The translations under genes and the position numbers were made by a program. Under the pieces are notes generated by a model that worked only from the letters and a program-made list of their open reading frames with translations, ran no database searches and had not been told where the DNA came from. From an uncultured Lachnospiraceae bacterium (GTDB lineage: Bacteria; Bacillota; Clostridia; Lachnospirales; Lachnospiraceae), in the NCBI GenBank assembly GCA_947650005.1, contig CANSTU010000009.1, positions 4,743 to 68,742 on the forward strand: 64,000 nucleotides of DNA, read 5' to 3'. Of this stretch, positions 35,939 to 54,098 are shown one piece after another (the stretch's first letter is position 1; each line of letters opens with the position of its first letter).

Positions 35939-36116
35939 AAATATTCGTCACCAGGCTGGTAAGCTGGCTCTTGAATATGATAACCAGGCCGATCAGCACC
36001 AGGATGATCAAAATCACCTCCACCGTCCCCATTCCTTCTTCCCCTTTCAGAACCTTTATACCTCTTTTTCTCAGTTTAGCTGCCGCACCCCGAATACTCC
36101 CAATCGCTTTACACAT
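35904..36116 (-). CDS. Flp-family type IVb/c pilin (70 aa)
   Basis: It lies inside the 95-aa track ORF. ATG is the complement of 36114-36116, with AAAGGAG 5 nt upstream. Sequence: MCKAIGSIRGAAAKLRKRGIKVLKGEEG/MGTVEVILIILVLIGLVIIFKSQLTSLV..., i.e. a basic leader, G-x4-E and a hydrophobic helix. Confidence 0.7.
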   Translation of the reverse strand: MCKAIGSIRGAAAKLRKRGIKVLKGEEGMGTVEVILIILVLIGLVIIFKSQLTSLVTNIFGKITSQAGTI

Positions 36117-36256
36117 GTAAACTCCTTTCCGCCCGTTCTGCCGGGCACTCGCTTTTATATACCATGCGCGTTCTGAGCCGTAGCTCCACATAGGGGCGCC
36201 GGCCGCCTTTCACAGCGCACGATTCCATCCAAGGTTTTTCCCGCCATTTCCGGCCC

Positions 36257-37726: not shown

Positions 37727-37729
37727 CTA

Positions 37730-38542
37730 TCACACCTCGATTTCTACTATTTTACGCGACAGCAAATACGCTGCCAGGTATACGGCCAGGGCGCCCGTCA
37801 TCACCAGGATTCCTGCAGGATTGTAATAAAGGACGTCAAAAAATCCTGGAGAGGTGAGCTTCAGATATGCCATGATCAGAAAAGGGATCAGATTCATAAT
37901 TCTCTGCTCATATTTTTTCGAAGAAAGGAGCGTACGGATCTCTTGTTTTACTTCGATTTTATTACCTATGACTTCTGCGCTGCGACGTATGATATGGTTC
38001 ATATTCCCTCCTGCCCTTTTTGCTATAGAAAACACCTCCGCAAAATCCTCTATGTCACTCTGTGCGCTCCGTGCTCCCAAATCCAGGAGCAGGGTTTCCA
38101 AAGGCATATTATTTCCCACCCCCTTTTCCATGCGTTCCAGTTCCCATACCATGGCGCTTTTGCTTCCGTACAGTCTTCCCACCTCCTTCTTCGATTCAAA
38201 GAAAGCATTTTCTATGGAGTATCCGGCCTGCAGCCCTGCCGCCACGGACAGGATTGTATCCCGAAATTCCAATGCCAATTCCTGACGCCGTTTTTCAGCA
38301 AGTTGTCTTCCGTTTTCCTTTAGGTAAAGGAAAACCAGAGGCGTCAGGAAAGGCGATGCCCATAGGGAACGATAGAAGAACCAGGAAAACAGCAGCACAA
38401 TCGCAATCCCCTGCGATGTATAGATCAGCAGCTCCCGCACATTCATAGAATAGATCCGGTAGTCCGGCGCGTGCTCCTTCTTGGACGACGCCTTTTTATC
38501 CTCTCTACGGCCCAATCCCCGCCATCTTGAGTTTGTCCCCAT
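37730..38542 (-). CDS. TadB-like platform protein (T2SSF domain)
   Basis: 270 aa. FRDTILSVAAGLQAGYSIENAFFESKKEV, followed by a C-terminal TM pair. It overlaps the ATPase gene's 3' end. Confidence 0.7.
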   Translation of the reverse strand: MGTNSRWRGLGRREDKKASSKKEHAPDYRIYSMNVRELLIYTSQGIAIVLLFSWFFYRSLWASPFLTPLVFLYLKENGRQLAEKRRQELALEFRDTILSVAAGLQAGYSIENAFFESKKEVGRLYGSKSAMVWELERMEKGVGNNMPLETLLLDLGARSAQSDIEDFAEVFSIAKRAGGNMNHIIRRSAEVIGNKIEVKQEIRTLLSSKKYEQRIMNLIPFLIMAYLKLTSPGFFDVLYYNPAGILVMTGALAVYLAAYLLSRKIVEIEV

Positions 38543-39761
38543 GGATTAGTTCCCCCTTTCTTACCAACCGGCCGCGTACCCTGTTTGCGTCCCCTCCGTC
38601 TTCTTCAAATTCAAACAATACGGACAGCCGGATTTCTCCGTCCCAAATCCCCTCCACCTCGGCGATCTGCAATACCTTTCTCGTCTTATCCCGCATCCTT
38701 CCCAGATGGACGACGATATCTACGCCGGAAGCAATCTGCCTACGGATTGCGGGAAGTGGAATTTCCATCCCCATTAACATCATCGTTTCCAGGCGTGTGA
38801 GCATATCTCCTGCGCTGTTGGCATGTCCGGTGGACATGGAGCCGTCGTGTCCGCAGTTCAGGGCGCTCCCCACCAGATCCACCGCTTCCTCGCCCCTCAC
38901 CTCCCCTACGATGATCCGGTCCGGCCGCATCCGCAGGGATGTGCGGATTAAATCCCGAATGGCGATCGGACGGCATCCTTCCACATTGGCGTTTCTCGTC
39001 TCCATACGAACCAGATTGGTAATTCCCCGGATCTGTAGCTCCGCGCTGTCCTCAATGGTGATCAGCCTTTCGTCCGGCGGAATATACCCCGCCAAGGCGT
39101 TCAGAAACGTGGTTTTACCGCTGCCCGTCCCCCCGCTGATGAAAATATTGTATCTGGCTTTCACCACCTTCTCTAAGAAGTCACAAGCCTCCTGCGTTAC
39201 GGATCCTGCTTCCAGCAGTTCCTTCATGCCGATGGGTTTCTCAGGAAACCGCCTTATCGTCACCACCGGGCCGTTTAAAGCAACCGGGGCCAGCACCACG
39301 TTTACCCTGGATCCGTTTTCCAGCCTGGCGTCCACAATGGGCGATGCCTCGTTCACCGTCCGGTTACAGCCGGATACGATCTGCTGGATCACATCCTGCA
39401 GCTTCTCCCTGGACGCAAACCCCCATGGCCAGGACGAAAGCCTTCCCTCCCGTTCCACGAAAATTCCTTCCATACCATTAATCATGATCTCCGTCACCTG
39501 CGGATCATCAATCAGCTCCTGAATCGCATCCAGCCCGCGCATGGCATAGAACAATTCCCTTCCCATCCTGACGCGTTCATGGACATCCAGTTTTCCCGCC
39601 GTCTCCCTGCCCCGCAGCTTTCCTGCAATTCGATCCTGTAATTCCCCGTCCGGCATTTCCCGTGATAGATCAATCGTTTCCAGTAATTCCTCCCGGACAT
39701 TTTCCCGAATCCTTTGATACTCCTTCTCCCGTTCTCCCATTCCCTCTCTTCTTTCCTCCAT
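38505..39761 (-). CDS. CpaF/TadA-family secretion ATPase (T2SSE)
   Basis: 418 aa. Walker A FISGGTGSGKTTFLNAL, Walker B-type RIIVGEVRGEEA, and a His box GHDGSMSTGHANS. Confidence 0.9.
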   Translation of the reverse strand: MEERREGMGEREKEYQRIRENVREELLETIDLSREMPDGELQDRIAGKLRGRETAGKLDVHERVRMGRELFYAMRGLDAIQELIDDPQVTEIMINGMEGIFVEREGRLSSWPWGFASREKLQDVIQQIVSGCNRTVNEASPIVDARLENGSRVNVVLAPVALNGPVVTIRRFPEKPIGMKELLEAGSVTQEACDFLEKVVKARYNIFISGGTGSGKTTFLNALAGYIPPDERLITIEDSAELQIRGITNLVRMETRNANVEGCRPIAIRDLIRTSLRMRPDRIIVGEVRGEEAVDLVGSALNCGHDGSMSTGHANSAGDMLTRLETMMLMGMEIPLPAIRRQIASGVDIVVHLGRMRDKTRKVLQIAEVEGIWDGEIRLSVLFEFEEDGGDANRVRGRLVRKGELIHGDKLKMAGIGP

Positions 39762-40764
39762 CGCCCAGATCTTCCCTGATCAGTTTTCCAACCGCGCCTG
39801 CCAGTTCCCCGTGGGTTAAGTTCTCCAGCTCGGCCGGCAGCGTCCGAAAAATGGGAAGCCTGCATTTTCTGGTCTTTGACAGGATCTCTTCCAGCTCCAT
39901 ACAACGCAGCAATTCTTCATAATGTTCCTGTTTTGCTTCCGCGAAACCGTCTTCCTTTACGATGGTATAGATCTGGCTGCATCTTTTTAAAAGTTCAAAC
40001 AGTCCCTGAACGCTCTCCGTAAGATCCAGAAGAATGTATTCGTACATCCCGCAGCTCTCCAGTTCGTCCAAAAGGGTAAGCCATTCCTCCTTCTCTATCT
40101 TCATTAAATCCATACAGGAGAAAACCGGTGGAACGAAATCCATTCCGCACACCTTCTGCGCCATCCCCTCCAGTCGGTAAGGAAACCGTCCGTCCTTGTT
40201 ATGTATAAAATAAATCAAATCCGATAAGTCAGCCCTAAACTCTCGCCGGAGCATCCGGCCCAATCCTGAAAAACACTCAAAATTCAGATATAATACTTTG
40301 TGATTTCGGGCAAGAAGCTGCCCTAATGTGAATGAAAATGTGGTTTGAAGACACCGTCCCACCGGTGAATAGATTCCGATCAATTTTAGGCTCCCTGCCC
40401 GCCCCGGGCCGGAGGCCGGTGGCAGAATCCCTGTCTGCACCGAAAGTTCTATGATCCTGCGTACCACAGCCTCCATGGGCTGATATTTCCCGATCCATGG
40501 TACTTCGGGCGGCCCGGCCATATCTTCCGCCAATACCAGGATATGGCTGGCTTCCCATCCATCCCTCCTTTCATACAGAGATTGGGCAATCAGAAGGAAT
40601 ACCGCCTCTTCCCCTTTGCCGATCCGTTCCAAGGACTTCCCATCCGTATAGACCCGTACCTCAAAAGGAAAATTTTCCATAACGGACGGACGATGGAGAT
40701 AGTCCATGAAATGGCTGACATACTCCCGTTCCGTGTCGCAGAGCGCCAGAATATTCTTTTTCAA
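39670..40764 (-). CDS. TadZ/CpaE-like protein: receiver-like N-domain plus ParA/MinD-like domain with a degenerate P-loop
   Basis: I prefer the TTG start at 40764 (GGGAGG 7 nt upstream, MKKNILALCDTE) over the track ATG at 40779. GIYSPVGRCLQTTFSFTLGQLLA sits where ParA/MinD has KGGxGKT. YEYILLDLTESVQG sits at the Walker B-like position. Confidence 0.5.
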   Translation of the reverse strand: MKKNILALCDTEREYVSHFMDYLHRPSVMENFPFEVRVYTDGKSLERIGKGEEAVFLLIAQSLYERRDGWEASHILVLAEDMAGPPEVPWIGKYQPMEAVVRRIIELSVQTGILPPASGPGRAGSLKLIGIYSPVGRCLQTTFSFTLGQLLARNHKVLYLNFECFSGLGRMLRREFRADLSDLIYFIHNKDGRFPYRLEGMAQKVCGMDFVPPVFSCMDLMKIEKEEWLTLLDELESCGMYEYILLDLTESVQGLFELLKRCSQIYTIVKEDGFAEAKQEHYEELLRCMELEEILSKTRKCRLPIFRTLPAELENLTHGELAGAVGKLIREDLGDGGKKRGNGRTGEGVSKDSGKCPGGITGND

Positions 40765-41040
40765 ACAAAAACCTCCCATAAAACAATAGCTTATAAAAAT
40801 CTGTTAGTAAGGCAAAATGGAATTCTTGATACACGGTCGAAAGAATTGAAAAAGACCGTGCCCGGATACTGATGATCCAATTGATGAAACTGAGTATAAA
40901 CCATCCCCTGAGATTTGTCCATAGGAGAAACGGTAAAAAAACAGTTTTGTGAAAAATAGACGAACGTCCCTTTGTAAGTACCAGTTAAAACGCCCCAGCC
41001 CCTGATAAATACAGGGTTTTTACCTGTCAAAAATATTGTC

Positions 41041-41319
41041 TCAGGTAAGAAAACGGGCGCATATTCCAATTGCATACAACAGCGCAATCCCCGGAATCCC
41101 CAGCGCACCCGATACAACTGCGCTAGCCAAACCGATTCCTACCTTCAAGGATATGCCGATAGAACCCAAAAAGGAATTGATGAAATAAATGGCGAGCAGG
41201 CCGCAGACCGCACGCAGGATGAAGTTCAGCAGCAGTTCCGTTCTGCTGCGCATCGCTGCGACCAGCATCACCAGGATGCAGGCTCCTCCTATCATGACCA
41301 TTCCGTTTCCGTAGTCCAT
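41041..41319 (-). CDS. bofA: Pro-sigma-K processing inhibitor BofA-like membrane protein
   Basis: 92 aa from ATG (complement of 41317-41319): MDYGNGMVMIGGACILVMLVAAMRSR...LNFILRAVCGLLAIYFINSFL...ALGIPGIALLYAI. It is a small two-helix protein and sits next to a yaaL-like gene, as in Bacillus. Confidence 0.7.
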   Translation of the reverse strand: MDYGNGMVMIGGACILVMLVAAMRSRTELLLNFILRAVCGLLAIYFINSFLGSIGISLKVGIGLASAVVSGALGIPGIALLYAIGICARFLT

Positions 41320-41472
41320 TCCGGCTCCCTTTCCGCATACAATGAATCTTTTCTTTGAGATGTTATACCTTATGCGCCCCAAAAAAGAAATATGACATGC
41401 ATATTTTTCCTTTTTTTGTATATACTTATCACAAAGCATCTTTTGGTAAAATCCGGAAAAGGAGGCGCATGC

Positions 41473-41724
41473 ATGAAATTCCATTTCAGCCGCGGGATCA
41501 TCCCCAAGGCGGACAAGCCCCTTACTTACCAAGAAAGTCTGATGATGGATTTACAAAGGACAAGATGCGATCTGGAAAATGCCTATGCAGGCTTCGATTA
41601 TGCCACGGATCCTGACCTGATCGATTGCTATATCTACGAACAGAATGCCGTGATGAAAAGATACAAATATCTGCTGCAAAAAGCCGCCAGCCTGACGGCT
41701 TCTGAACAGACAATGACCGGATAA
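41473..41724 (+). CDS. YaaL/DUF2508-like protein
   Basis: ATG 41473 follows AAAAGGAGG. 83 aa. DLQRTRCDLENAYAGFDYATDPDLIDCYIYEQNAVMKRYKYLLQKA fits the DUF2508 pattern. Confidence 0.7.
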   Translation: MKFHFSRGIIPKADKPLTYQESLMMDLQRTRCDLENAYAGFDYATDPDLIDCYIYEQNAVMKRYKYLLQKAASLTASEQTMTG

Positions 41725-41844: not shown

Positions 41845-43758
41845 TCAGAACACGAAAACCGCAGCCCCCAGCGCTGGAAGATCAAAGGTAATCCTGTAAG
41901 GCCGATAATCGCTGGGCTCCGCCGTGGCCCGGATGGAAGCGGGGATCTCGGCTCCGTTTCCGCCAAACCGCTCATCATCGCTGTTAAGGATCAGATGGTA
42001 GGCCTTCTTTTTCGGAACGCCTACACAATATTCCTTTCTTTCCACAGGCGTCATATTCATGACGAAGAGCAGGTTTTCTTTCCCTTTAGAGGATTTCCGA
42101 ATAAAGCTGTAAGTACTGCGGTCCGCATCGTCCGCATTGACCCATTCAAAACCGCTCCAGTCGTTGTCTATTTCATGCATGCAGCTGTACTTATGGTAAA
42201 TCTTCAAAAGCTCCTTCACATATTCCAACATGCCTGCATTCAATTCGTTCTCCAGCATATACCAGTCAAGCTCCCTGGCCTCGCTCCACTCCCGCTCCTG
42301 GGCAAATTCCTGGCCCATGAACAGAAGCTTCTTTCCCTCATGGCCAAACATATAGGTATAACCCGTACGAAGATTGGCGTATTTGTCCACCTGGTATCCG
42401 GGCATTTTATTCACCATGGAACACTTCAGATGCACCACTTCATCATGGGACAACGGTAGAATATAATTCTCTGCATTGTTATAACTCATGGCAAATGTCA
42501 TGCCATAGTGATTATTTTTACGGAAATAGGGATCCAGTTTCATATATTCGCAGAAATCGTGCATCCATCCCATATTCCATTTATAACTGAAATGCAGCCC
42601 GCCCTTTTCAATCGGGCCTGTCACCAGGGGCCAGGCCGTGGATTCCTCCGCAATGGTCATTACGCCCGGAAAAGTCCCGCGGATCACGGAATTAAAATGT
42701 TTAAAAAATTCAATGGCCTCCAGATTTTTGTTTCCGCCGTATTTATTGGCCACCCACTCCCCGTCCTTCTTTCCATAATCCAGATAAAGCATGGAAGCCA
42801 CCGCATCCACGCGCAAACCGTCCACATGGAATTCTTTGATCCAGAAAAGGGCATTGGCAATGAGGAAATTTTTCACCTCATTCATACCATAGTTGAAAAT
42901 CTTCGTCCCCCAATCCGGATGCTCTCCCAACCTGGGATCCGGATGTTCAAAAAGCGCTTCCCCATCAAACTCCGCCAGTCCGTGGGCATCCCTGGGAAAG
43001 TGGGCCGGCACCCAATCGAGAATCACACCGATCTTGTTACGGTGAAGCGTGTTCACCAGATACGCAAAATCCTCCGGCGTACCGTAACGGGAAGTGGGTG
43101 CGTAATATCCCGTCACCTGGTATCCCCAAGAACCGTCAAAGGGATGCTCCGCAATCCCCATGAGTTCCACATGGGTGAATTTCACTTCCTTCAGGTAAGA
43201 TACCAGCCTGTCAGCAAACTCCCTGTAGTTATAGAAGCCGTCCTCCGTCCCGTCAGGATGTTTCATCCAGGATCCGATGTGGCACTCATAGATCGCTAAC
43301 GGTTCCTTGTTCATATCCTTTTCGTCCCTGGCTTCCATCCACACAGAATCGCTCCAGGAAATTCTCGACAGATCCGTTGTGATGGACGCCGTTTCTGGAC
43401 GCAGCTGTGCATAATTAGCAAAGGGATCCGCCTTATAGAGCTTACGACCGTCCGCAGTAGTGATCAGGAACTTGTACATCTCTCCGCACCCTACGCCTGG
43501 TATAAACAGCTCATAGATCCCGCCCGGCCCGATTTTTTCCATCGTATGCCGGTTCTCATCCCATTCATTGAAGCTGCCGATCACATGAACCTGGGCCGCA
43601 TGGGGCGCCCACACGCCGAAGAACATCCCCTTTTTCCCGTCCACTGTGGAGGGATGTGCCCCCAGCTTTTTGTAAATGTCATAATGCGTTCCCTGTGCGA
43701 ACAGGTATTGATCCGCTTCGGATATAAATACCTGCTCTCTGTTTTTTGCTTTTGCCAT
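41845..43758 (-). CDS. glgB: 1,4-alpha-glucan branching enzyme
   Basis: I start it at MAKAKNREQVFISEADQYLFAQGTHYDIYKKLGAH (ATG 43758). GH13 motifs DWVPAHF, GLRVDAVASM and EESTAWP are present. Confidence 0.9.
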   Translation of the reverse strand: MAKAKNREQVFISEADQYLFAQGTHYDIYKKLGAHPSTVDGKKGMFFGVWAPHAAQVHVIGSFNEWDENRHTMEKIGPGGIYELFIPGVGCGEMYKFLITTADGRKLYKADPFANYAQLRPETASITTDLSRISWSDSVWMEARDEKDMNKEPLAIYECHIGSWMKHPDGTEDGFYNYREFADRLVSYLKEVKFTHVELMGIAEHPFDGSWGYQVTGYYAPTSRYGTPEDFAYLVNTLHRNKIGVILDWVPAHFPRDAHGLAEFDGEALFEHPDPRLGEHPDWGTKIFNYGMNEVKNFLIANALFWIKEFHVDGLRVDAVASMLYLDYGKKDGEWVANKYGGNKNLEAIEFFKHFNSVIRGTFPGVMTIAEESTAWPLVTGPIEKGGLHFSYKWNMGWMHDFCEYMKLDPYFRKNNHYGMTFAMSYNNAENYILPLSHDEVVHLKCSMVNKMPGYQVDKYANLRTGYTYMFGHEGKKLLFMGQEFAQEREWSEARELDWYMLENELNAGMLEYVKELLKIYHKYSCMHEIDNDWSGFEWVNADDADRSTYSFIRKSSKGKENLLFVMNMTPVERKEYCVGVPKKKAYHLILNSDDERFGGNGAEIPASIRATAEPSDYRPYRITFDLPALGAAVFVF

Positions 43759-43817: not shown

Positions 43818-46800
43818 TCATTCTATCATGAAATCCCCTTCATGCAGAATAATCATGTCGTCATCATCGTACCGCTTGGCGAGGATCACGTCCATGAAAT
43901 GTTTCGGCGTCTTCTTGTTCGCATGGTCGATCGCCCTGTTCACGATCTGGCGCACATCCTTCACCGTAACTACATGATCAATGGTCTGCATGCCTTCAAT
44001 ACAGGTGTGCAGGGCAAGTCTTCCCAGCTCATCGATGGCATATTCCTGCATCTTGGCGTACTGACAGCCATAGGCTACCAGCGTACCGTTATCCAAGGCC
44101 TCGATATCAAACCTAGCATTAAAGAAGGGCTCCATTTCCGGATTTTCCGTTTCAAGTGTCCGGATATTACGTTTTGTATCGATCAGGATCACAAGGATCC
44201 CCCATCTCTCCTGATCCAGGGCAGCCAACAGCTCCTGCATGCCGTCGCGGCTGATCTCCCCGGCTCGCTCAATGATCATCGCACCGCCGGAAAGCTTCTC
44301 AATGAATTCCGAAGGATCCTTTTTACCGCTGTTTAAGGCCGGACCGGACATTTTAGCCAGTTTCCCGGAAAAATTCCGATCTTTTGCCCGCATATCCTTA
44401 ATCACATTTTTTGCCAATTCAAGAGTATCCGAACCGGGATCTCCTGTGATAATAAGATTGCCCGTATAGGCTGCAAGGCTCAGCTTATCCAGAGCTGCGG
44501 CCAACCTCTTCATGGCGCCTTTTGTGGGTACAAAGGAGGAAAACATCCGTTTTTCTTCCGAACTAAGTCCTCTGTTTTTCTCCCTGCCCTCCCCGGGCTC
44601 CATCCGCCGATATCGGCCCTCTGCTTCCTGTTTATGGCCTTCCTGCCTGTTTTGGCGGGAAGTATTTTCTTCTGGTATGCCTTCCTGCGCCTCTTCCAGT
44701 CCGCTTTCTTGGAGCATATTTCCTTCGGGAATCTCATTTTGCACATTCATGCGGGAAATACTTTCCCCGGCAATGTTCTCTTGAACGCCATCCGGCGGCA
44801 TATTTCCTCCGTATATATTCCCCTGCAAAGTTCTACTTTTGAAGGGCCGCATTTCTTCAGGCATCCTGTAATCCCGTTCTACCAGCCGCCGATCCGCTTC
44901 CTGACGATAAATCTCTTCAGGCAATCCGTTTTCTTCCCGATGGCTATCCCTCACGGGTGCTCCGTCCACATCCAGACGTCCGTCCCTTGCGGGCATTCTA
45001 TCTGTCTCCCAGCGCTCATCCCTTGCGGATGCTCCGTCCACATCCAAGCGTCCATCCCTTGCGGGCATTCTATCTGTCTCCCAGCGCTCATCCCTTGCGG
45101 ACGCTCCGTCCACATCCAAGCGCCCATCTCCTGCAGGCGCTCTTTCTGCCTCTCGGATCTCATCTCTTACAAGCGTTTTGCCCGCCTCTTGGCGTCCATT
45201 CCTCGCAGGCGTCCTATCTGCTTCTCGGATCTCATCCCTCACAGGCGTTTTGCCCACTTCTTGTCGGTCATTGGCCGCGGACGTCCCGTCTGATTCCCGA
45301 TAGCCATTCCTTACAGGCATTCCATCCGCTTCCCAGCGCTTACCCCTTCCCCGTTCTCTCTCCGCCCTTTGGAGAATCGTTTCCGGCGTATCGGCATCTC
45401 GCCCACGGCGCTCTGAACCCGGCTGTTTCTCTCCCGTTCCTCGGTAATTATCCTCTGGCATTTCTATCTCATGCTCATACCTGTTTCCTCCCCAATGTGC
45501 ATCTTCCTTTTCCCGATAGACAGATTTATCCTCATTTTGTTCCGAAACGCCACGGCTGCTTTCCGGCCGGCTCCCGTCCTGCCGCCGATCCGCTTCCAGC
45601 TGGCTTCTGTCCGCATCAGGGCTCTTTTTTTCCGTATATACCTCTTGCTCTTCCCGGCGGATCAGCTCTGACTGCCTATCAGCCGCAACCAGCCGGCTCC
45701 TTTCTGAACGATCGTTGGCTTCTTCCCGCGTATTTTCTTCCGATCTCCTATCTATGGTCTCCGCATGCCTTCCTTCCGATGAGCGGCTATTGGGGGCATG
45801 GCGTCTCTTTTCCGTCCCCCCGATACGCTCCCCTTCAAACGCTTCCGTGTCCGTCATTGTTTCCTCAGATGGGATACGCGATGAAGAATCCTCTGCTTTT
45901 GCCGCCCTTTTCAGGGCATTGTTCACCTCTTCCGCCGCCCAAATCTTGGTCTGGGCAGAAATCACATTATCGGAGACCTGTTTTCTCTTTTCTACAGGGA
46001 TCTGCTCCTCCTTCTGCAGTTTCTCGAGAATCCCCTCTCTGGAAGAGGTATCGAAATCCCGCAGCAGCGTGCCTGTCTCCTTCTGCATCCGATCATGCAG
46101 CTGTCGGCGACGCTTCTCTTCGTTCACCTGCTTCATCTTTTCCCATTCCTTCATGACATCTTCTATATTCATCTGGCCGGTGATCTGCTTCTCCACCTGC
46201 TTTTCATCAGATACTGAAGAATGCTCCTGGGACAGACTTTCCCCGACACTTCTCTTTCCCTCTTCCCCATTGACAGGCTGTTGGGAATCGCTCCTTTCTT
46301 CCGAAGTAGGCTGGGCGGGCAGACGTTCAGACTGTGGCGGTAAAACAGCGCGCATTCCTTCCTCAGGTTCCTGGCCATCAACAGTGCGCATACTTTCCAC
46401 AAACTTTATCTTTTCCCGGGCATTCGTTTGCTCAACCGGCCTTCTGTTTTCATATTCCTGTTGTTTTTCTTCATAATCAGGCCGCAGGCTTTCATATACC
46501 TGCATGCTTCCATAGGCCCTTCTCCCTCTCTCATAGGCAGCTTGGCCATTGTCCTCATAAGGAACAGCTGCCGCTGGAGATTTCCGCCTCCCATCGTCAT
46601 AATTCGGCAGTATTTCCTCAGGTGCTCTATTGTCTGTGACCTCACTCCAGCCTTTTCCGTCCCCCGCTCCCGTACCATTCGGCTGGTCGCTTCCACCGTA
46701 TCCGGCCTGCATGTCTCCATAATCGTACTGTTCTGAATCGTAACCGGGCTGCATCTGGTCATAAGTGTACTGCTCCTGACCGTTATCCGGCTGATTTTGA

Positions 46801-48347
46801 TCGTAACCATATTGGCCCGCGTCATCGCCTGACTGTATCTGATCATAACCATACTGGGTCTGGCCATAACCCGGCTGATTTCCTGCGTACTCAGATTGAC
46901 CTACATCATAACCAGTCTGCATTTGGCTATAATCAGACTGACTTTGTCCATAATCATACTGACCTGCATCATAACCAGGCTGATTTGGGCCATAGCCATA
47001 CTCACCTGCATCATAGCCGGATTGATTTGGGCCATAACCATACTGGCTTGCATCATAACTGGATTGATTTGGGCCATAACCATACTGGCCTGCGTCATAA
47101 CCGGGTTGATTTGGGTCATAACCATACTGGCCTGCGTCATAACCGGATTGATTTGGGTCCTGGCCATACTGGCCTGCATCATAGCCCGATTGGCTTTGAC
47201 CATAGCCATATTGGCCCGCATCATAGCCCGATTGACTTTGGCTATAGCCGTACTGGCCTGTGTCATAACCGGGCTGACTTTGATCATAGCCGTACTGGCC
47301 CGCATCATAGCCCGATTGACTTTGGCTGTAGCCATACTGCGTCTGGCCATAACCGGACTGGCTTTGATCATAACCATATTGGCCCGCATCGTAACCGGAC
47401 TGGCTCGGGTCATAACCATATTGGCTTCCGTCATAGCCTGGCTGCGTTCCATCATAACCGTATTGAGCCTGATCATACCCCTGATCCTGCCCATATCCAT
47501 AAAGACGCTGCTGTTCCTGATACAGCTGCTCCCGGTACTGCTGCAGAGACATTCCATTTTGAAGGGTTTGACCGTTCTGCAAAACCTCTTTCATGCTTTC
47601 TGCCAGCTCTTTTTGCAAATTGAGCGTATTGTACTTTCCCATATCCATGGCTTTTACCTGGATATCCTGTTCCGCACCCCCTCTTGTGCCAGCACTCTTC
47701 TTGGAGTCCCCCGGCACGTTCAGGCCCTGTTTACGCATCATATAAACATCAAATTTCTGCTGCTGTGCCGGAGATAACGGCTGGTGGAGCAGCTTCAGCT
47801 CCATCGCCTTCATCACATATTTCCCCTCCCCAAACCAGAGAATCAGCTCATCACATTCTTCCACGCATTTCGTGGCCAGCCCCACTCTATGATACAGGTA
47901 CGCCAACTCATAGGCCCATCTTTCCCTATATTCCTTCTTCTTCATTTCCTCCAGGACGCCGATCCGCTCCTCAAGGCTCACGTCCTGCGCCTCGTACAAT
48001 TTGTACTGCAAAACAAAACGCCCGCTGTCACCGGGTGCAATCTGGACAAAATTCTTATAATATTCAATGGCCCCCAGCACATCCCCCATCTTAATTGCCA
48101 GCTCACATAGGGAATAAATGATCATCCTGCCGCCCGGATGCCGCTCATTTGCCATCTCCAGCAACGCCTTTGCATCATCGTATCTTCTGTTAGCATTATA
48201 GACGTCGCTGACCGTACAGAGCATCATCACGCTTTTTACCCTGCTCCAGTCTATGGTATCCGCTATCTTCGCGGCTTCCGCATATTTTTTCTGGGAACTT
48301 AGCGCCCTGATCTCCTCTGCCCGTATCTTATATTCATATTTATCCAA
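43818..48347 (-). CDS. 1509-aa protein: N-terminal TPR-like region, long low-complexity repeat-rich centre, C-terminal SpoVK/CbxX-like AAA+ domain with degenerate Walker motifs
   Basis: I prefer the TTG start at 48347 (GGTAGAGGTGA RBS 5 nt upstream; the track ATG at 48434 has none). The N-terminal ~200 aa is helical-repeat-like (YAEAAKIADTIDW..., AIEYYKNFVQIAPGDS..., ELAYLYHRVGL). The C-terminus aligns by eye to the SpoVK/CbxX AAA+ layout, but with LIITGDPGSDTLELAK in place of GxPGTGKT and GAMIIERAG in place of hhhhDEA. Confidence 0.75.
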   Translation of the reverse strand: MDKYEYKIRAEEIRALSSQKKYAEAAKIADTIDWSRVKSVMMLCTVSDVYNANRRYDDAKALLEMANERHPGGRMIIYSLCELAIKMGDVLGAIEYYKNFVQIAPGDSGRFVLQYKLYEAQDVSLEERIGVLEEMKKKEYRERWAYELAYLYHRVGLATKCVEECDELILWFGEGKYVMKAMELKLLHQPLSPAQQQKFDVYMMRKQGLNVPGDSKKSAGTRGGAEQDIQVKAMDMGKYNTLNLQKELAESMKEVLQNGQTLQNGMSLQQYREQLYQEQQRLYGYGQDQGYDQAQYGYDGTQPGYDGSQYGYDPSQSGYDAGQYGYDQSQSGYGQTQYGYSQSQSGYDAGQYGYDQSQPGYDTGQYGYSQSQSGYDAGQYGYGQSQSGYDAGQYGQDPNQSGYDAGQYGYDPNQPGYDAGQYGYGPNQSSYDASQYGYGPNQSGYDAGEYGYGPNQPGYDAGQYDYGQSQSDYSQMQTGYDVGQSEYAGNQPGYGQTQYGYDQIQSGDDAGQYGYDQNQPDNGQEQYTYDQMQPGYDSEQYDYGDMQAGYGGSDQPNGTGAGDGKGWSEVTDNRAPEEILPNYDDGRRKSPAAAVPYEDNGQAAYERGRRAYGSMQVYESLRPDYEEKQQEYENRRPVEQTNAREKIKFVESMRTVDGQEPEEGMRAVLPPQSERLPAQPTSEERSDSQQPVNGEEGKRSVGESLSQEHSSVSDEKQVEKQITGQMNIEDVMKEWEKMKQVNEEKRRRQLHDRMQKETGTLLRDFDTSSREGILEKLQKEEQIPVEKRKQVSDNVISAQTKIWAAEEVNNALKRAAKAEDSSSRIPSEETMTDTEAFEGERIGGTEKRRHAPNSRSSEGRHAETIDRRSEENTREEANDRSERSRLVAADRQSELIRREEQEVYTEKKSPDADRSQLEADRRQDGSRPESSRGVSEQNEDKSVYREKEDAHWGGNRYEHEIEMPEDNYRGTGEKQPGSERRGRDADTPETILQRAERERGRGKRWEADGMPVRNGYRESDGTSAANDRQEVGKTPVRDEIREADRTPARNGRQEAGKTLVRDEIREAERAPAGDGRLDVDGASARDERWETDRMPARDGRLDVDGASARDERWETDRMPARDGRLDVDGAPVRDSHREENGLPEEIYRQEADRRLVERDYRMPEEMRPFKSRTLQGNIYGGNMPPDGVQENIAGESISRMNVQNEIPEGNMLQESGLEEAQEGIPEENTSRQNRQEGHKQEAEGRYRRMEPGEGREKNRGLSSEEKRMFSSFVPTKGAMKRLAAALDKLSLAAYTGNLIITGDPGSDTLELAKNVIKDMRAKDRNFSGKLAKMSGPALNSGKKDPSEFIEKLSGGAMIIERAGEISRDGMQELLAALDQERWGILVILIDTKRNIRTLETENPEMEPFFNARFDIEALDNGTLVAYGCQYAKMQEYAIDELGRLALHTCIEGMQTIDHVVTVKDVRQIVNRAIDHANKKTPKHFMDVILAKRYDDDDMIILHEGDFMIE
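44959..45296. repeat. In-frame 72-nt (24-aa) tandem repeat array inside the giant gene
   Basis: Units start at 44959, 45031 and 45103; the first two are nearly identical and encode RDGRLDVDGASARDERWETDRMPA. A related 72-nt pair has CTCGGA landmarks at 45153 and 45225, encoding GKT(P/L)VRDEIREA(D/E)R(T/A)PA... Confidence 0.85.
46967..47470. repeat. In-frame 42-nt (14-aa) tandem repeat array inside the giant gene
   Basis: Twelve consecutive units by hand alignment, starting at 46967, 47009, 47051 ... 47429. They encode variants of QYGYDxSQSGYDAG. More degenerate copies flank the array, to about 46700 and 47500. Confidence 0.85.
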
Positions 48348-48600
48348 AATGTCACCTCTACCGTATGCCTCAGTAATGAGCCTTCCGACCCACTTTTTGC
48401 ATATAAGTTTACCATAACAGGACGCTTGCGGCAAGAGCGGAAGCGTGAAGTTTTTTAGGAGACCCCTGGCAGTTTATCCCACTCTCCCATCCCCCTTTTA
48501 CAGCATTGTTCCGTATCCCCCAGCCAGGTTAGCGTGGAATCAGGAACGCAACAGCAACCCAAGCGCCGCGTGCATACACCTAGTGCAGGCAAAAATTGTC

Positions 48601-48773: not shown

Positions 48774-48960
48774 GCAGACAGGTATCCTTTTTCTCACCGG
48801 AGTTCAGATAAACCGCATATATGAGAGGCATAGGTGTTTTTTTATTCCCTTCTTTCCGGTCTGTCGCCGGAACGAACTATCTTCCTGTGTTTTCTTTGGG
48901 CATGGCCGGCATTATGCAGCTTTTTAGCCCTTCATATCTTGCGAATCTGTGATTTATTTT

Positions 48961-48989
48961 CCTCCGGTGAACGACCGGAGGATTTTTTT
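48961..48989 (+). terminator. Canonical rho-independent terminator (attenuator) 34 nt upstream of the ABC-F start codon
   Basis: CCTCCGGT-gaacg-ACCGGAGG followed by ATTTTTTT. An upstream CACCGGAG (48795-48802) could pair with the left arm instead. Confidence 0.7.
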
Positions 48990-49022
48990 CCTGTCTGGCC
49001 CATTGAGAGGAGTGAGCGTTCC

Positions 49023-50573
49023 ATGTCTATCATACAGATTAAAAATCTTACCATAAACCATAAAAAAGATCTGCGTCCCCTTCTGCTCGATTTTTCCTTT
49101 ACCTTGAACGATGGGGAACGGGCAGTGATCATCAGTGAAGAGGGGAACGGAAAATCGACTCTTCTGAAGCTCATTTATGATGCGGCTTTGGTAACGGATT
49201 ATGTGGAGCATGCCGGGGAAATCCTCACACAGGGGCGCATCCTTGCCTATCTGCCCCAGGAATTCCCTGCCGATAAGAAGTCGCAGACCGTTTATGAATA
49301 CTGTCTGAACACCCCCGCTTTTATGGAGCAGACGCCACGGGAGTTAGCCGCGCTGGCCGCATCCTTGCAGCTTCCAAAAGACTTCTTTTACTCCGACCAG
49401 CCAACTGGCACACTCTCCGGCGGAGAAAAGGTGAAGCTGCAGATCGCTCTTCTTTGCATGATACAGCCCGACGCTTTCCTTCTGGATGAGCCGTCCAACG
49501 ATATCGATATTGAAACGCTGGAATGGCTGGAAACGTTTCTCAATACCTGCGGTAAAAGCGTCCTATACGTTTCCCACGATGAGACCCTCATCGAACGCAC
49601 AGCAAACGTGATCATCCATCTGGAGCAGGTAAGAAGAAAGACCCAGCCACGCGCCACCGTGGTCCGTATGCCCTATCGGGAATATATGCAAAACCGGCAG
49701 GATGCTTTCTGCCGTCAGGAACAGCTAGCCGCCAACGAGCGCCGGGAGTATCAGAAGCAGATGGAACGGTTCCGCCGTATCGAACAGAAGGTGGAAGCCA
49801 TGCAGGCCAGCATTACCCGCCAGGATCCCCACGGCGGACAGCTTTTGAAGAAAAAAATGAAGGCAGTAAAGAGCCAGGAACGCCGTTTCGAAAAGGGTCG
49901 GGAAAATATGACGGACATGCCGGACATGGAGCAGGCGATCTTTGTAAAAATTCTGCCGGAAAATCGTCTTCCCGCTGGAAAAACCGTCCTAGACTTTACC
50001 TGTGACAGCCTGGCCGTCCCAAACCGCGTCCTGGCCCAAAACGTCGCGTTGCGCGTCACAGGACCGGAAAAAATATGCATCATAGGCCGAAACGGCGTCG
50101 GAAAAACCACTCTGTTAAAGCAGATCGCCGACCTCCTCCTGCCCCGGAACGATCTCAAGGTTTCCTATATGCCCCAGGATTATGCCGATCTGCTGCCGGA
50201 GGATCAAACACCTGTGGAGTATCTTACCCACACTGGAGACAAGGACGAACTCACCACGATTCGTACTTATCTCGGCAGTATGCATTATACGGCGGATGAA
50301 ATGTCCCACCGCGTAAACGAACTTTCCGGCGGGCAGAAGGCTAAGCTGCTCTTTCTGAAAATGAGCCTGGAGGGTGCGGACTGCCTGATTCTGGACGAAC
50401 CCACCCGAAATTTCTCGCCTCTTTCGGGTCCGGTCATCAGACAGGTATTACAGGAATTCCCAGGAGCCATCATCAGCATTTCCCACGATAGGAAATATAT
50501 CCAGGAGGTATGCACTAAGGTATATCAGCTGACGGAAAATGGCCTTCTTCCTATTCCCCATCCGGGGAAATAA
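49023..50573 (+). CDS. ABC-F family ATPase (two ABC domains, no TM domain; ARE/ribosomal-protection-like)
   Basis: I start it at MSIIQIKNLT (ATG 49023, with GAGAGGAG upstream). Walker A motifs are SEEGNGKST and GRNGVGKTT; signatures are LSGGEKVKL and LSGGQKAKL. A charged interdomain linker of about 80 aa is present (EYMQNRQDAF...QERRFEKGREN). Confidence 0.85.
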   Translation: MSIIQIKNLTINHKKDLRPLLLDFSFTLNDGERAVIISEEGNGKSTLLKLIYDAALVTDYVEHAGEILTQGRILAYLPQEFPADKKSQTVYEYCLNTPAFMEQTPRELAALAASLQLPKDFFYSDQPTGTLSGGEKVKLQIALLCMIQPDAFLLDEPSNDIDIETLEWLETFLNTCGKSVLYVSHDETLIERTANVIIHLEQVRRKTQPRATVVRMPYREYMQNRQDAFCRQEQLAANERREYQKQMERFRRIEQKVEAMQASITRQDPHGGQLLKKKMKAVKSQERRFEKGRENMTDMPDMEQAIFVKILPENRLPAGKTVLDFTCDSLAVPNRVLAQNVALRVTGPEKICIIGRNGVGKTTLLKQIADLLLPRNDLKVSYMPQDYADLLPEDQTPVEYLTHTGDKDELTTIRTYLGSMHYTADEMSHRVNELSGGQKAKLLFLKMSLEGADCLILDEPTRNFSPLSGPVIRQVLQEFPGAIISISHDRKYIQEVCTKVYQLTENGLLPIPHPGK

Positions 50574-50656: not shown

Positions 50657-52582
50657 TCACTCCTCCTCATATCGGATTTCCACACCGGGCACATATTTCC
50701 TTTCCATTTGATGTCGGGCCTTTCGGTTTTCCACCGTATCGAAAATAATGGAAAAATCATAATCCGGTGGATACATTTCGCTGGCTGCCACCTTCAGCTG
50801 CAGCCTTTTATAGTTCACATAGCTTTTTTTCTTCTGGATCTGCACCCCCACCTCTCCTTTGTCATTGGCCGGAGCGAACACGATTCCCAACTTCCTCTGT
50901 GGATATACCATCACGCTGTCCCCTATGGTGAACCGGGACACAATCTCCTCCTTTTTACTCACGGGATTTTCCACACTGGCCTTTATCCTACGCGGACTCT
51001 CCCGCTTCCCTTCTTCCGTCCCTTCCTCTTGAAAGAAAGGCGCTTTCGCCGCCTGCTTTCCGTTGCCATAGGCCGCCCGACCGGCCCGCTCCAACAGTTT
51101 TTCCGACATACCCAGCCTTCTGGCAATGTGAAAAGCGCAGCTCTCCCCACTCTCTCCCAACTCCAGACGGTATAGGGGGCGAAGGCTTTCCCGGTCGAAC
51201 GCCATCCTGGCATTGATCACGCCCTCTGCCGCGTTTCCGTATTCCTTCACCTCCGGATAATGGGTAGTAACCAGGAAAAGGCAGCCCCTGTTTCTCAGTT
51301 CCTCCAATACCGCAACGGCAATACCCATCCCCTCTGCGGGATCGGTTCCGCTGCCCAACTCATCCATAAGCACCAGGCTTTCTGAATCCGCCTTTTCCAG
51401 GATCCGGATCACATTCTTGATATGAGAGGAAAAGGTGGACAGGTTTTCATGAATGCTCTGCCCGTCTCCCACGTCGCAGAAGACGTCCGCATGCATGGCC
51501 AGATCCGCTTCCTCACAGGGCACATGCAGACCGCACTGGGCCATCGCTGAAAGCAGGCCCACGGTTTTGAGGGCCACCGTTTTCCCGCCCGTATTGGGCC
51601 CAGTGATGATCACCCCTCGTATCTCGCCCCCGAACTGGATATTAAGCGGCACAGGCTTCTCGCCAGACAGGAGCGGATGTCTGCCATTTTTGATCAAGAT
51701 TCTTCGGCAGGTGTTCAGCCGGGGCGCCGACGCGCGCATGGATGCGCTGAGTTTTCCCTTGGCAAAAATAAAGTCCAGTTCTTCCATATATTCCAGGTTC
51801 CGGACGATCCCTTCCTGCGCATCCCCTACCATAGCGGACAGGGTATAGAGAATCATTTTTTCCTCATTTTCTTCTTCCACCTTTAATTGCGCCAATTCCT
51901 CGGTCAACTTTGCCACGGCGGCCGGCTCAATGAAAAGGGTTGCCCCTGTGGAGGAAATATCGATCACGCTTCCGGGAACCTTTCCCTTATATTCCTTTTT
52001 TACGGGAAGGGTATACCGGCCGTTTCTGGTGGATACGAAACTTTCGCTGAAATAAACTTTTGAACTGCGCAGGATTCCGTCCAGCTTCATTTTGATCTGG
52101 CTTTCCATCTGTTCCTGGCGGCGGCGGATGTTATGCAACGCCTTACTGGCATTATCCTCCACCCGTTCGTCCCGGATACACCGCTCAATTTCCTCCTGCA
52201 GCTGCGTCAACTCCTCAATTCCGTTTCCAAACCCGGCAATCCCGGGCGCCGTTTCCCTGCATCGTTTCAGATATCGCACCAGCCTCATTGCGAGCACCGC
52301 AAACTGCCTCACTCCGTTCAATTCCTGGGCGGAAAGCATCCCGCCCAGCCCAGCCTTCTGTGCCGTTTCCCGTATGCCGTCCATATTTCCCACCGGAGGC
52401 GTGCCGAAAGCATCCAGCACCCTTCGGGCCTCCGTGGTTTCACAAATGGCCGCTTCCGCCCGATCCTGCTCCAAAAATGGCTTCAGTTCCTCAAACCGTC
52501 TTCTCGACCTCTCACAGCATGCGGCTTCCTTCAGCCATTCCCTGATCTGATTAAACTCCAGCATCTCGTTGATATCGTTCAT
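50657..52582 (-). CDS. MutS2-related protein lacking the C-terminal Smr domain
   Basis: 641 aa. MutS domain V P-loop ITGPNTGGKTVALKTVGL and LVLMDELGSGTDP are present. The C-terminus (SRFTIGDSVMVYPQRKLGIVF...) looks KOW/SH3-like rather than Smr. Confidence 0.75.
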   Translation of the reverse strand: MNDINEMLEFNQIREWLKEAACCERSRRRFEELKPFLEQDRAEAAICETTEARRVLDAFGTPPVGNMDGIRETAQKAGLGGMLSAQELNGVRQFAVLAMRLVRYLKRCRETAPGIAGFGNGIEELTQLQEEIERCIRDERVEDNASKALHNIRRRQEQMESQIKMKLDGILRSSKVYFSESFVSTRNGRYTLPVKKEYKGKVPGSVIDISSTGATLFIEPAAVAKLTEELAQLKVEEENEEKMILYTLSAMVGDAQEGIVRNLEYMEELDFIFAKGKLSASMRASAPRLNTCRRILIKNGRHPLLSGEKPVPLNIQFGGEIRGVIITGPNTGGKTVALKTVGLLSAMAQCGLHVPCEEADLAMHADVFCDVGDGQSIHENLSTFSSHIKNVIRILEKADSESLVLMDELGSGTDPAEGMGIAVAVLEELRNRGCLFLVTTHYPEVKEYGNAAEGVINARMAFDRESLRPLYRLELGESGESCAFHIARRLGMSEKLLERAGRAAYGNGKQAAKAPFFQEEGTEEGKRESPRRIKASVENPVSKKEEIVSRFTIGDSVMVYPQRKLGIVFAPANDKGEVGVQIQKKKSYVNYKRLQLKVAASEMYPPDYDFSIIFDTVENRKARHQMERKYVPGVEIRYEEE

Positions 52583-52882: not shown

Positions 52883-52911
52883 ATCATATCAGCACTTTTC
52901 TGAAATGTCAA
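52883..52911 (-). promoter_or_regulatory. Consensus sigma-A promoter overlapping the cofE-like stop codon
   Basis: On the minus strand: TTGACA (52911-52906), a 17-nt spacer, then TATGAT (52888-52883). Confidence 0.5.
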
Positions 52912-54098
52912 CTCACATAATTGTCAAAATATCCCTGAATCAGGATCACCGGCGTTCCCTTATCCCCAGATCCGCTGGTTAAATCGCACAGGGAACCGAT
53001 CAGATCCGTAAGCCTTCTGGGCGTCGTACCCTGGGAAGCCATATCTCCCACCAGGTTATCCTTCTTCTCCCGAATACGTCCCTTGATCGCTTCCTTTAAC
53101 GCTTCTCCGGATAGATCCTTGAAATCGTTATCCGCCAGATATTTCAATTTTACTTCATTAGGCGTTCCCGCAAGGCCGGGCGTACTGGCCGGGGATACGC
53201 AAGGATCAGCAAGCTCCCAGATCTTCCCGACCGGATCCTTGAAGGCTCCGTCACCGTATACCATCGCTTCCACATGCTTTCCTGTCCTATTGAGGATTTC
53301 CTTCTGAATATCCATCACCAGATCCGTACATTCCCTGGGGAACAGCTTAACCGTATCCTCCGTAGACTTGTTGGAGCCCAGCAGCCCATATGCCTCATTG
53401 CAGCCGCTTCCTTTAACAGGGCTCGTAAGGATGTCGTCCATCCCCATTACGATTTCAGCCCCTGCCTCCTTTAACAGCCTCTTGGTGCGCTGCCTCGTAT
53501 GAATGTCACAATTGAGCACTTTCTTGGCATAGGGCAGAATGCTGCGGCAGTCATTGGCAAAGATAATTTCCACCTCAGCCCCTGCTTCCCGGATCAGATC
53601 TCCATAGTAGGCTACATAATCCACCCCTGTGAAAGGATGCCTGTTTTCCCCGAACAGCTCCCGATATTTCTCCAGGCTGAGCACATCGCTGTAAGGATTG
53701 ACTCCTGCTTCATCCAGTTTATCCAAGGACACCAGCTCGTTCCCCACCTCGTCGCTGGGGTAGCTCAACATGAGAACCACCTTTTTCGCACCCATAGCGA
53801 TTCCCCTTAAGCAGATAGCAAAACGGTTTCTGGACAGAATCGGAAAGATCACGCCGATGGTTTCCCCGCCCAGCTTTGAGCGCACATCCTCTGCGATCGC
53901 TTCCACAGACGCATAGTTTCCCTGGGCTCTTGCCACCACGGATTCCGTCACTGCAACCACATCCCTGTCGCGGAGCTTAAATCCTTCCTCTTTTGCAGCA
54001 TCAAGGACGCTGTCCGTCACAATTTTAACCAGGTCATCGCCTTCCCTGATGATGGGACAGCGGATTCCTCTCGATATAGTTCCAACTTTTCTCTCCAT
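52908..54098 (-). CDS. CofE-like (F420-0:gamma-glutamyl ligase family) protein
   Basis: 396 aa. The N-terminus RGIRCPIIREGDDLVKIV...LRDRDVVAVTESVVARAQGN resembles the CofE-family fold, followed by an extended C-terminal half. Confidence 0.7.
   Translation of the reverse strand: MERKVGTISRGIRCPIIREGDDLVKIVTDSVLDAAKEEGFKLRDRDVVAVTESVVARAQGNYASVEAIAEDVRSKLGGETIGVIFPILSRNRFAICLRGIAMGAKKVVLMLSYPSDEVGNELVSLDKLDEAGVNPYSDVLSLEKYRELFGENRHPFTGVDYVAYYGDLIREAGAEVEIIFANDCRSILPYAKKVLNCDIHTRQRTKRLLKEAGAEIVMGMDDILTSPVKGSGCNEAYGLLGSNKSTEDTVKLFPRECTDLVMDIQKEILNRTGKHVEAMVYGDGAFKDPVGKIWELADPCVSPASTPGLAGTPNEVKLKYLADNDFKDLSGEALKEAIKGRIREKKDNLVGDMASQGTTPRRLTDLIGSLCDLTSGSGDKGTPVILIQGYFDNYVS

Follow-up and report, generated by a model that had tools for sequence, protein, structure and literature searches.

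A Lachnospiraceae protein family encoded beside glgB joins a TPR domain to a predicted non-hydrolysing AAA+ module

The EccA proteins (for example EccA1 of Mycobacterium tuberculosis) combine an N-terminal tetratricopeptide repeat (TPR) domain and a C-terminal CbbX-type AAA+ domain in one polypeptide chain. Here we describe a protein with the same domain order, encoded by a 1509-codon gene that precedes glgB, the gene for the 1,4-alpha-glucan branching enzyme, in a 64,000-nucleotide stretch of DNA from an uncultured Lachnospiraceae bacterium (assembly GCA_947650005.1, contig CANSTU010000009.1, positions 4,743-68,742; hereafter the window). The closest fold and profile relatives of its C-terminal domain are SpoVK and CbbX, the activase of red-type Rubisco. 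Both are hexamers with ATPase activity and carry the motifs GxxGxGKT and hhhhDE. The family to which the window protein belongs can be aligned with them in the region that surrounds Walker B, sensor 1, the arginine-finger position and the lid, and differs from them in the exchange of the Walker A lysine for threonine, in the exchange of the DE pair for ER, EK or QK, and in the loss of the GNAR sensor-2 motif; CbbX and SpoVK also lack both the TPR domain and the disordered segments. A further point of comparison is HolA, the delta subunit of the clamp loader, where an AAA+ fold likewise persists without hydrolysis and serves as an interaction module. Weak HolA matches were obtained with 9 of 26 family members (best E = 8e-7), but the likeness concerns the general fold only: nothing suggests a DNA replication context, and unlike HolA the window protein is fused to TPR and disordered parts.

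The protein departs from EccA in several respects. Its ATPase motifs are destroyed throughout the family, and its TPR and AAA+ domains are separated by an insert of about 1000 residues made up of two disordered segments and a conserved middle module. Its scores fall far under the EccA family cut-offs, and its hosts are Lachnospiraceae rather than Actinobacteria. Finally, its operon partner is glgB and the neighbouring genes are ABC-F, MutS2-like, yaaL, bofA and Tad genes, with no type VII secretion gene of an ESX locus among the annotated neighbours. Within glycogen metabolism, a parallel is offered by CipG, a small non-enzymatic pentapeptide-repeat protein of the cyanobacterial carboxysome that recruits GlgC and controls the site and amount of glycogen (PMC13506006). 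The analogy is one of function only, since CipG is not homologous, has GlgC rather than GlgB as its partner and operates in the context of the carboxysome. Taken together, our analysis defines an uncharacterised and strongly conserved Lachnospiraceae family whose closest known layout is that of the TPR-AAA+ adaptors, and points, with a probability of roughly 45%, to a non-catalytic adaptor or scaffold that would work with the glycogen branching enzyme.

Folded ends of an uncharacterised family

A HMMER scan with the C-terminal 290 amino acids (aa) recovered 1311 clusters at 50% identity, 462 of them with E <= 1e-30. When one genome was counted per species, a confirmed relative was present in at least 561 species, and all credibly labelled carriers are Lachnospiraceae (the named ones being Eisenbergiella, Acetatifactor, Waltera, Gallintestinimicrobium, Roseburia, Lachnoclostridium and Butyrivibrio). 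A few metagenome-assembled genomes labelled Bacteroides or Odoribacter are probably binning errors. The closest relatives of the window gene come from mouse-gut metagenomes. An order of TPR domain, motif 2, variable segment, middle module, variable segment and AAA+ domain is common to 99 full-length representatives. Full-length members measure about 810-1565 aa, and the window protein ranks second largest at 1509 aa. What a preliminary description of this sequence had presented as a singular giant protein is therefore one large member of a widespread family.

Pfam scans of the full protein and ten diverse relatives returned no family or DUF model that covers the protein; TPR matches were mostly sub-threshold, although TPR_14 and TPR_19 just reached their cut-offs on some sequences, and matches to sigma-54 AAA models were sub-threshold. 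The expectation that no characterised protein shares this layout held, generic TPR models being the only Pfam or NCBIfam ones to reach a cut-off. Database entries for the relatives are named solely 'hypothetical protein' or 'ATP-binding protein', and a search for named relatives with the TPR-domain profile recovered mostly contig-end fragments, all of them 'hypothetical protein'. Most of the TPR-matching entries (relatives P0270-P0389) are fragments of 250-490 aa from short contigs. Because metagenome assemblies often break in the repetitive centre of the gene, both the size of the family and the length of its members are under-reported in protein databases. Literature searches on the TPR/AAA+ architecture and on partners of glgB in Lachnospiraceae yielded no paper about the family.

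The N-terminal domain is built as a generic TPR solenoid with about six repeats. With single sequences, Pfam TPR matches were mostly sub-threshold, and TPR_14 alone just made its cut-off when the N-terminal fragment was searched in isolation. A profile built from 22 family N-termini matched consensus TPR proteins with E = 6e-14. AlphaFold2 placed 12 helices across residues 1-206, with a confidence score (pLDDT) of ~97 over residues 1-200, in keeping with the tandem 34-residue helix-turn-helix repeats and the superhelix that characterise TPR domains. Its best Foldseek matches were consensus TPR superhelices, the TPR domain of O-GlcNAc-transferase (OGT) and MamA; no specific structural likeness to the TPR domain of EccA1 appeared among the top 50 matches. 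The ratio of nonsynonymous to synonymous substitution rates (dN/dS) for this domain is 0.00 relative to a 93%-identical orthologue, and identity within the family is 50-86%. Cys81 and the pair Cys161/Cys165 (CVEEC) are invariant across the family, as are W34, W144 and H153. The cysteines hint at a metal, redox or structural site, which would be unusual for a TPR domain.

Matching the C-terminal domain to solved structures by sequence required a family profile. With the single sequence, matches were weak for both SpoVK (E = 2e-4) and CbbX (E = 0.01); the corresponding scores were 20.8 bits against a cut-off of 422.95 for TIGR02881 (SpoVK) and 15.4 bits against 459.25 for TIGR02880 (CbbX). None of the curated-family cut-offs was reached, that of EccA (TIGR03922) included, and the C-terminal 300 aa alone matched no PDB sequence. 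In an alignment of 26 family members, SpoVK was matched by all 26 (best E = 5e-11), CbbX by 22 and EccA by 21. Searched against the PDB, the family profile matched EccA1 best (9lur, E = 4e-5), followed by CbbX (3zuh, E = 1.6e-4). The AlphaFold2 model (pLDDT 84) contains a beta-alpha-beta core and a C-terminal helical bundle, the succession of alpha/beta core and helical lid expected of an AAA+ fold. In Foldseek it matched CbbX best (3zuh and 3syl, E = 1e-8); RFC clamp-loader subunits, RuvB and spastin came next. The preliminary description had read a TPR-like N-terminus and a C-terminus of SpoVK/CbxX layout from the sequence, making the latter depend on AAA+ similarity in profile searches; family profiles, PDB matches and structural models bear out both assignments, and the similarity to SpoVK extends to every aligned member.

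The motifs for nucleotide hydrolysis are altered throughout the family. At Walker A, the consensus hhhTG[DE]xGxDT stands in place of GxxGxGK[ST], with a lysine in none of the approximately 150 representatives examined; in an alignment with NtrC1, GESGVGKE falls opposite GEeGsDTl. At Walker B, the same set of representatives carries IIEK or IIQK in place of hhhhDE, the window protein has GGAMIIERA, and GGVLFIDEA of EccA1 and CbbX lies opposite nGaliiekA of the family profile. At sensor 2, the HMMER alignment sets avtveev against FANARSI of CbbX, with no arginine at the position. With the lysine gone from Walker A, the acidic pair from Walker B and the arginine from sensor 2, the module is predicted not to hydrolyse ATP, and it probably does not bind it. 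The absent lysine and altered Walker B had already led to the proposal of a pseudo-ATPase, which the family alignments uphold. The motif FNAR[IF]D aligns with RSRFATRIEF of EccA1 and FRSRIAHHIEF of CbbX, and the family conserves its arginine, R1412 in the window protein, at 90% or more. Relative to the same 93%-identical orthologue, dN/dS for the AAA+ module is 0.05. This strong purifying selection, despite the dead motifs, marks the module as a maintained functional part of the protein and not as a product of decay.

The glgB junction and the role of the protein

The most conserved feature of the locus is its junction with glgB. Of 80 related loci, 78 have glgB as the next gene downstream in the same orientation. 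The median gap between the stop codon and the glgB ATG is about 19 nt, and ten loci have a 4-nt ATGA overlap, which suggests translational coupling. In the window the gap from the stop codon to the glgB ATG is 59 nt, and no terminator-like site was found within it. The most divergent representatives checked (41-45% AAA+ identity) carry glgB 18-30 nt downstream, amid unrelated flanks. The genes upstream vary, being ABC-F and MutS2-like in the window, NUDIX and ROK in E. tayi, and UvrA-like in Waltera. The DNA downstream of glgB varies as well, with yaaL-bofA and a Tad pilus locus in some genomes and an inserted DUF6240-flagellin-FliS cassette in others. The arrangement is consistent with a two-gene operon in which the large gene comes first and is co-transcribed with glgB. 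The preliminary description had used glgB as a landmark for the position of the gene; the adjacency is real, and its retention across the related loci makes it more than a landmark.

By its sequence pattern, the promoter of this operon is of the sigma-A type and near consensus in the family. Of 77 distinct upstream regions, 70 contain the -10 motif TATGnTAnAnT, in most cases preceded at about 13 nt by TTGACA; the resulting pattern of -35 element, 17-18-nt spacer and extended -10 element is located 40-160 nt before the start codon. That start codon is TTG in 75 of 79 family genes (loci L001-L083), GTG in the other 4 and ATG in none. That a non-ATG start has been retained while the proteins diverged by about 50% suggests that weak or regulated translation initiation is selected for in the first cistron. 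Most family members also have a leader box of the approximate pattern AAGTGGG-N5-T-N-T-R-C near the expected transcription start, which could be an operator or a 5'-end stability element. A structured leader RNA was considered and set aside: many individual sequences form small hairpins, but RNAalifold gave no consensus structure. An Rfam scan of the upstream region matched no family.

These features suggest a model for the adaptor role. The operon would be transcribed from the sigma-A-type promoter with the large gene as its first cistron, and the weak TTG start would keep the scaffold sub-stoichiometric to GlgB. The TPR domain would provide a protein-binding surface, and the dead AAA+ module would be kept as a structural or interaction module. 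Together, the two folded ends would recruit, position or organise GlgB or nascent glycogen particles, with the disordered segments acting as flexible multivalent spacers that give reach. By analogy, the recruitment of GlgC by CipG offers a precedent for non-enzymatic recruitment of a glycogen enzyme (PMC13506006), and we count it in favour of this model.

Several points weigh against the adaptor model. Two of the 80 loci contain an intact gene with no adjacent glgB, and DUF6240, flagellin and FliS genes follow directly; the protein is therefore not strictly dependent on glgB in cis. The genes glgC, glgA and glgP are not among the annotated neighbouring genes, and Pfam scans detected no carbohydrate-binding domain in the protein. 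We infer the link between the family and GlgB from genomic adjacency, and adjacency within one bacterial family could come partly from shared ancestry rather than function. The loss of nucleotide binding is likewise read from the motifs, and the conservation of Arg1412 makes a mixed ring with an active AAA+ partner possible.

The main competing explanation, which we regard as possible though doubtful, gives the protein a general housekeeping role unconnected with glycogen, as a scaffold or adaptor in, for example, cell organisation, division or protein quality control. In that case glgB would merely share a strong constitutive promoter, and the pair would be inherited as a block in Lachnospiraceae. 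A sigma-A-type promoter would suit such a role, and the extreme conservation of the TPR domain suggests a conserved core partner; the persistence of the gene at the two loci without adjacent glgB and the lack of a detected carbohydrate-binding module also favour it. However, the flanks of the locus have been shuffled among genomes and yet 78 of 80 loci, like the most divergent members, retain the glgB junction, with very short gaps and, in 10 loci, 4-nt overlaps, and hitch-hiking alone seldom survives so much rearrangement. The promoter pattern also bears on a sporulation role, raised in the preliminary description together with a link to the cell envelope. On this view the protein would derive from SpoVK and work in the mother cell or forespore, where it might couple reserves of granulose or glycogen to spore formation. 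Among named families the C-terminal domain scores highest with SpoVK (TIGR02881), yaaL (DUF2508) and bofA are found shortly downstream, and the glg operon of Bacillus subtilis is expressed in sporulation. Set against this, the combination of TTGACA-N17/18-TAnAAT-like elements with TRTG is a sigma-A pattern and not that of sigma-E, -K, -F or -G, which disfavours a sporulation-specific role; the SpoVK score is about 21 bits against a cut-off of 423, the catalytic motifs that define SpoVK are absent, and the distance to bofA ranges from about 0.4 to about 6 kb with other genes between. A link to sporulation or the cell envelope finds no support, and we consider the sporulation role improbable.

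A role as an EccA-like chaperone or adaptor for type VII secretion, for the Tad/Flp pilus encoded about 3 kb downstream, or for flagella is less probable still. In its favour are the EccA layout of TPR followed by CbbX-type AAA+, the rank of EccA1 as best PDB sequence match, and the match of 21 of 26 members to the EccA model. A Tad/Flp locus with a CpaF-type ATPase also lies downstream in the window, and a flagellin cassette follows glgB elsewhere. The likeness to EccA pointed out in the preliminary description therefore stands for the domain layout but not for the secretion role: no type VII secretion genes (EccC/EssC, WXG100) are present among the annotated neighbouring genes, and the lack of such a context disfavours a secretion chaperone. 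An accessory role for the pilus or flagella is disfavoured because the Tad and flagellin cassettes adjoin the gene only sporadically, whereas the protein is present in all compared genomes. Moreover, EccA is an active ATPase while the motifs of the family are dead, and the EccA1 TPR domain was not specifically matched in the top 50 Foldseek results.

Disordered centre and integrity of the gene

The centre of the protein had been described as roughly 1000 aa of low-complexity sequence joining the two ends. The repeat blocks and charged segments are indeed present, but the centre is not a uniform linker, since motif 2 and the middle module within it are conserved. In the family comparison motif 2, carried by the disordered acidic segment that follows the TPR domain, reads DIQVK..YNTLNLQKELAE. 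The middle module (~65-110 aa) occurs in nearly all full-length members with the core VEKQITGQMxIEDxxxEWExxK...TG..F..F, and its dN/dS is 0.06 relative to the 93%-identical orthologue. It gave no meaningful PDB match; against Pfam, 12 of the 20 members searched share a sub-threshold partial match to RA_2 (PF21989; E ~0.005-0.03). At the start of the module (46190-46235, aa ~705-719), most relatives carry LSQEYDGQISLVVPE (DGQISLVVPE), which loosely resembles the beta-clamp-binding motif QLxLxL; the clade of the window protein has LSQEHSSVSDEKQ in its place.

The first variable segment of the window protein (linker 1) contains a block rich in Q, G, Y, D and S. Residues 291-580 comprise 21% G, 18% Y, 18% Q and 11% D, and S accounts for 9% of aa ~283-550. 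No aliphatic residue occurs in aa 301-450, and the tyrosines of the block are spaced 3-7 residues apart. Its dN/dS is 0.12 against the same orthologue. In its richness in G, Y, Q and S and its depletion of aliphatic residues, aa ~283-550 resembles the Q/G/S/Y low-complexity, prion-like domains of the FUS family of eukaryotic condensate proteins. Unlike the FUS domains, the block contains 11% Asp, which makes it net negative, and is made of recent tandem repeats; its Tyr-richness is lineage-specific within the family. The second segment (linker 2) is a polyampholyte in which aa 831-1235 consist of 16% R, 15% E and 9% D. It evolves fast, with a dN/dS of 0.71; identity here falls to 84% in a relative that is 98-100% identical in its folded domains.

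Across the 99 full-length representatives, linker 1 spans 139-612 aa and linker 2 spans 0-481 aa. Both are acidic family-wide, with a median D+E content of about 23% in linker 1 and 33% in linker 2. Tyr-richness of linker 1 is not family-wide: the median is 2.6% Tyr, and at least 8% is reached in about 20 of the 99. Tyr-spaced acidic tandem repeats that differ in sequence are found in linker 1 of several separate lineages. In the window protein, in-frame expansion of the 42-bp and 72-bp repeats has stretched both disordered segments to near the family maximum.

The longest mechanical open reading frame in a six-frame listing runs from 48434 to 43818 on the minus strand (1538 aa). The true start is the TTG at 48347-48345 and not the TTG at 48434, as the homologues all open with MDKYEY there. 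The TTG at 48434 belongs to the -35 element, and automated callers that choose the longest reading frame would mis-annotate the gene start. A Shine-Dalgarno sequence, the homologue starts and the stop position agree with the 1509-aa frame and coordinates first reported. An open frame of 1509 codons in DNA of ~50% G+C rules out a chance origin. Inspection of the sequence revealed no signal peptide or hydrophobic segment, as would be expected of a cytoplasmic protein.

The doubt that the long frame might be an artefact of mis-assembled repeats, voiced when the gene was first described, or a decaying pseudogene can be reduced to a negligible possibility. Two tandem arrays lie inside the gene, and contig ends truncate many database relatives. 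In a second assembly (L089, coverage ~3.8x), the gene is nucleotide-identical apart from the loss of exactly one 72-bp (24-aa) unit, aa 1074-1097. This difference is either a true copy-number polymorphism or a repeat collapse at low coverage. On the other side, the 4.5-kb open frame terminates in a domain under strong purifying selection, and 3-4 independent mouse-gut assemblies contain the 93%-identical orthologue (1514 aa) without any change. All length differences between copies are whole codons or whole repeat units, and the family also has members of 1383 and 1565 aa. The reading frame is thus intact in independent assemblies.

Table 1. Positions of the gene, its signals and its neighbours in the window
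Feature	Position	Strand	Remarks
Complete coding sequence	43818..48347	minus	1509 aa + stop; TTG start 48347-48345; TGA stop 43820-43818
N-terminal TPR domain, aa 1-210	47718..48347	minus	12 helices, about 6 TPR-like repeats
C-terminal pseudo-AAA+ domain, aa ~1259-1509	43821..44573	minus	alpha/beta core + helical lid, SpoVK/CbbX/EccA clade
Walker A-equivalent loop GDPGSDT, aa 1302-1308	44424..44444	minus	Lys replaced by Thr, preceding Gly by Asp
Walker B-equivalent strand MIIERAG, aa 1357-1363	44259..44279	minus	DE pair replaced by ER; EK or QK in family
Arg1412 in FFNARFD	44112..44114	minus	aligned to arginine-finger (box VII) region of EccA1 and CbbX
glgB, 1,4-alpha-glucan branching enzyme	41845..43758	minus	probable ATG 43758; putative second operon gene
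-35 element TTGCCG	48429..48434	minus	TTGACA in most relatives; TTGCCG weaker
Extended -10 region TATGGTAAACT (TRTG + TAAACT)	48406..48416	minus	17 nt past -35
AAGTGGG leader box	48375..48395	minus	about 11-14 nt after -10; in the window can form an 8-bp hairpin with GGAA loop
Shine-Dalgarno GAGGTGA	48352..48358	minus	4 nt 5' of TTG start
Conserved motif 2, aa 228-256, DIQVKAMDMGKYNTLNLQKELAESMKEVL	47580..47666	minus	conserved in relatives; helix predicted, low confidence
Q/G/Y/D/S-rich low-complexity block, aa ~283-550	46698..47501	minus	14-aa unit
DNA tandem array, 42 bp x 11.6 copies, 79% matches	46939..47435	minus	encodes core of Q/G/Y/D block
Conserved middle module, aa ~705-815	45903..46235	minus	LSQE...VEKQITGQMNIEDVMKEWEKMK...RDFD...LEKLQKEE...TKIWAAEEV
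Second disordered segment, aa ~816-1255	44583..45902	minus	R/E/D-rich polyampholyte, charged fraction 0.42
DNA tandem arrays, 72-bp period (36-bp sub-period)	44946..45286	minus	24-aa units such as DGRLDVDGASARDERWETDRMPAR
ABC-F-type double ATPase	48834-50573	plus	upstream, divergent
MutS2-like protein	50657-52582	minus	upstream; MutS_V domain only
F420-0:gamma-glutamyl ligase-family protein	52908-54098	minus	upstream
yaaL-like (DUF2508)	~41470-41724	plus	after glgB
bofA	within 41041-41532	minus	after glgB
Tad/Flp-type pilus locus	34451-40779	minus	downstream of bofA
CpaF-like T2SSE ATPase	38505-39761		in Tad/Flp-type locus
369-aa protein	39670-40779		no Pfam match

Neighbouring genes and implications

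The three genes upstream of the large gene in the window, which encode the ABC-F, MutS2-like and F420-0:gamma-glutamyl ligase-family proteins, are conserved in the closest relatives only. On the other side, the yaaL-bofA pair is kept in many related loci at a variable distance from glgB. The Tad/Flp-type locus encodes, besides the CpaF-like ATPase, an aBig_2-domain protein and includes more reading frames; in a close relative (L001) the Tad locus also has genes for a Flp1_like pilin and DUF5702. By eye, the sequence of the 369-aa protein resembles a ParA/TadZ-like P-loop without the lysine (IGIYSPVGRCLQTT), which would make it a possible second pseudo-NTPase. In genomes of the Waltera/Acetatifactor type, genes for a ~1000-aa DUF6240 protein, flagellin and FliS form a cassette that is inserted after glgB or, in two genomes without an adjacent glgB, directly follows the large gene (L029 10936-15437; L070 8867-13776; L083 8781-13460). 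Its position beside flagellin and FliS makes DUF6240 look flagellum-associated.

The adaptor model can be extended further, to a version that we consider unlikely as it stands, in which the protein is an unrecognised organiser of bacterial glycogen particles. The partners of the TPR and dead AAA+ ends would be GlgB, further Glg enzymes or one another, and the Tyr-spaced acidic segments would provide multivalent, condensate-like or glucan contacts, so that granules are nucleated or spaced. In the window genome, the 270-residue FUS-like Q/G/Y/D domain would fill the disordered role, and variation in repeat number would tune its reach. The suggestion in the preliminary description of a scaffold or condensate-forming protein is possible. 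If the organiser role were true, the protein would be a bacterial counterpart of the non-enzymatic scaffolds that initiate starch or glycogen granules in plants and animals.

Lachnospiraceae are among the most abundant butyrate producers of the mammalian gut, and glycogen storage is thought to be important for their persistence. The gene is widespread among them, its folded parts are under purifying selection, and it has a near-consensus promoter and forms a putative operon with glgB; yet it lacks a name, a Pfam family and any literature. The window protein, with its FUS-like Q/G/Y/D block and its repeat-unit length variation, is a natural test case for comparing bacterial low-complexity domains with eukaryotic condensate-forming ones. 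Should the glycogen link prove false, the family would still be a conserved unknown, of more modest interest. If the glycogen role is true, the family would represent a new kind of non-enzymatic component of glycogen metabolism and a clean example of a catalytically dead AAA+ module that has been retained.

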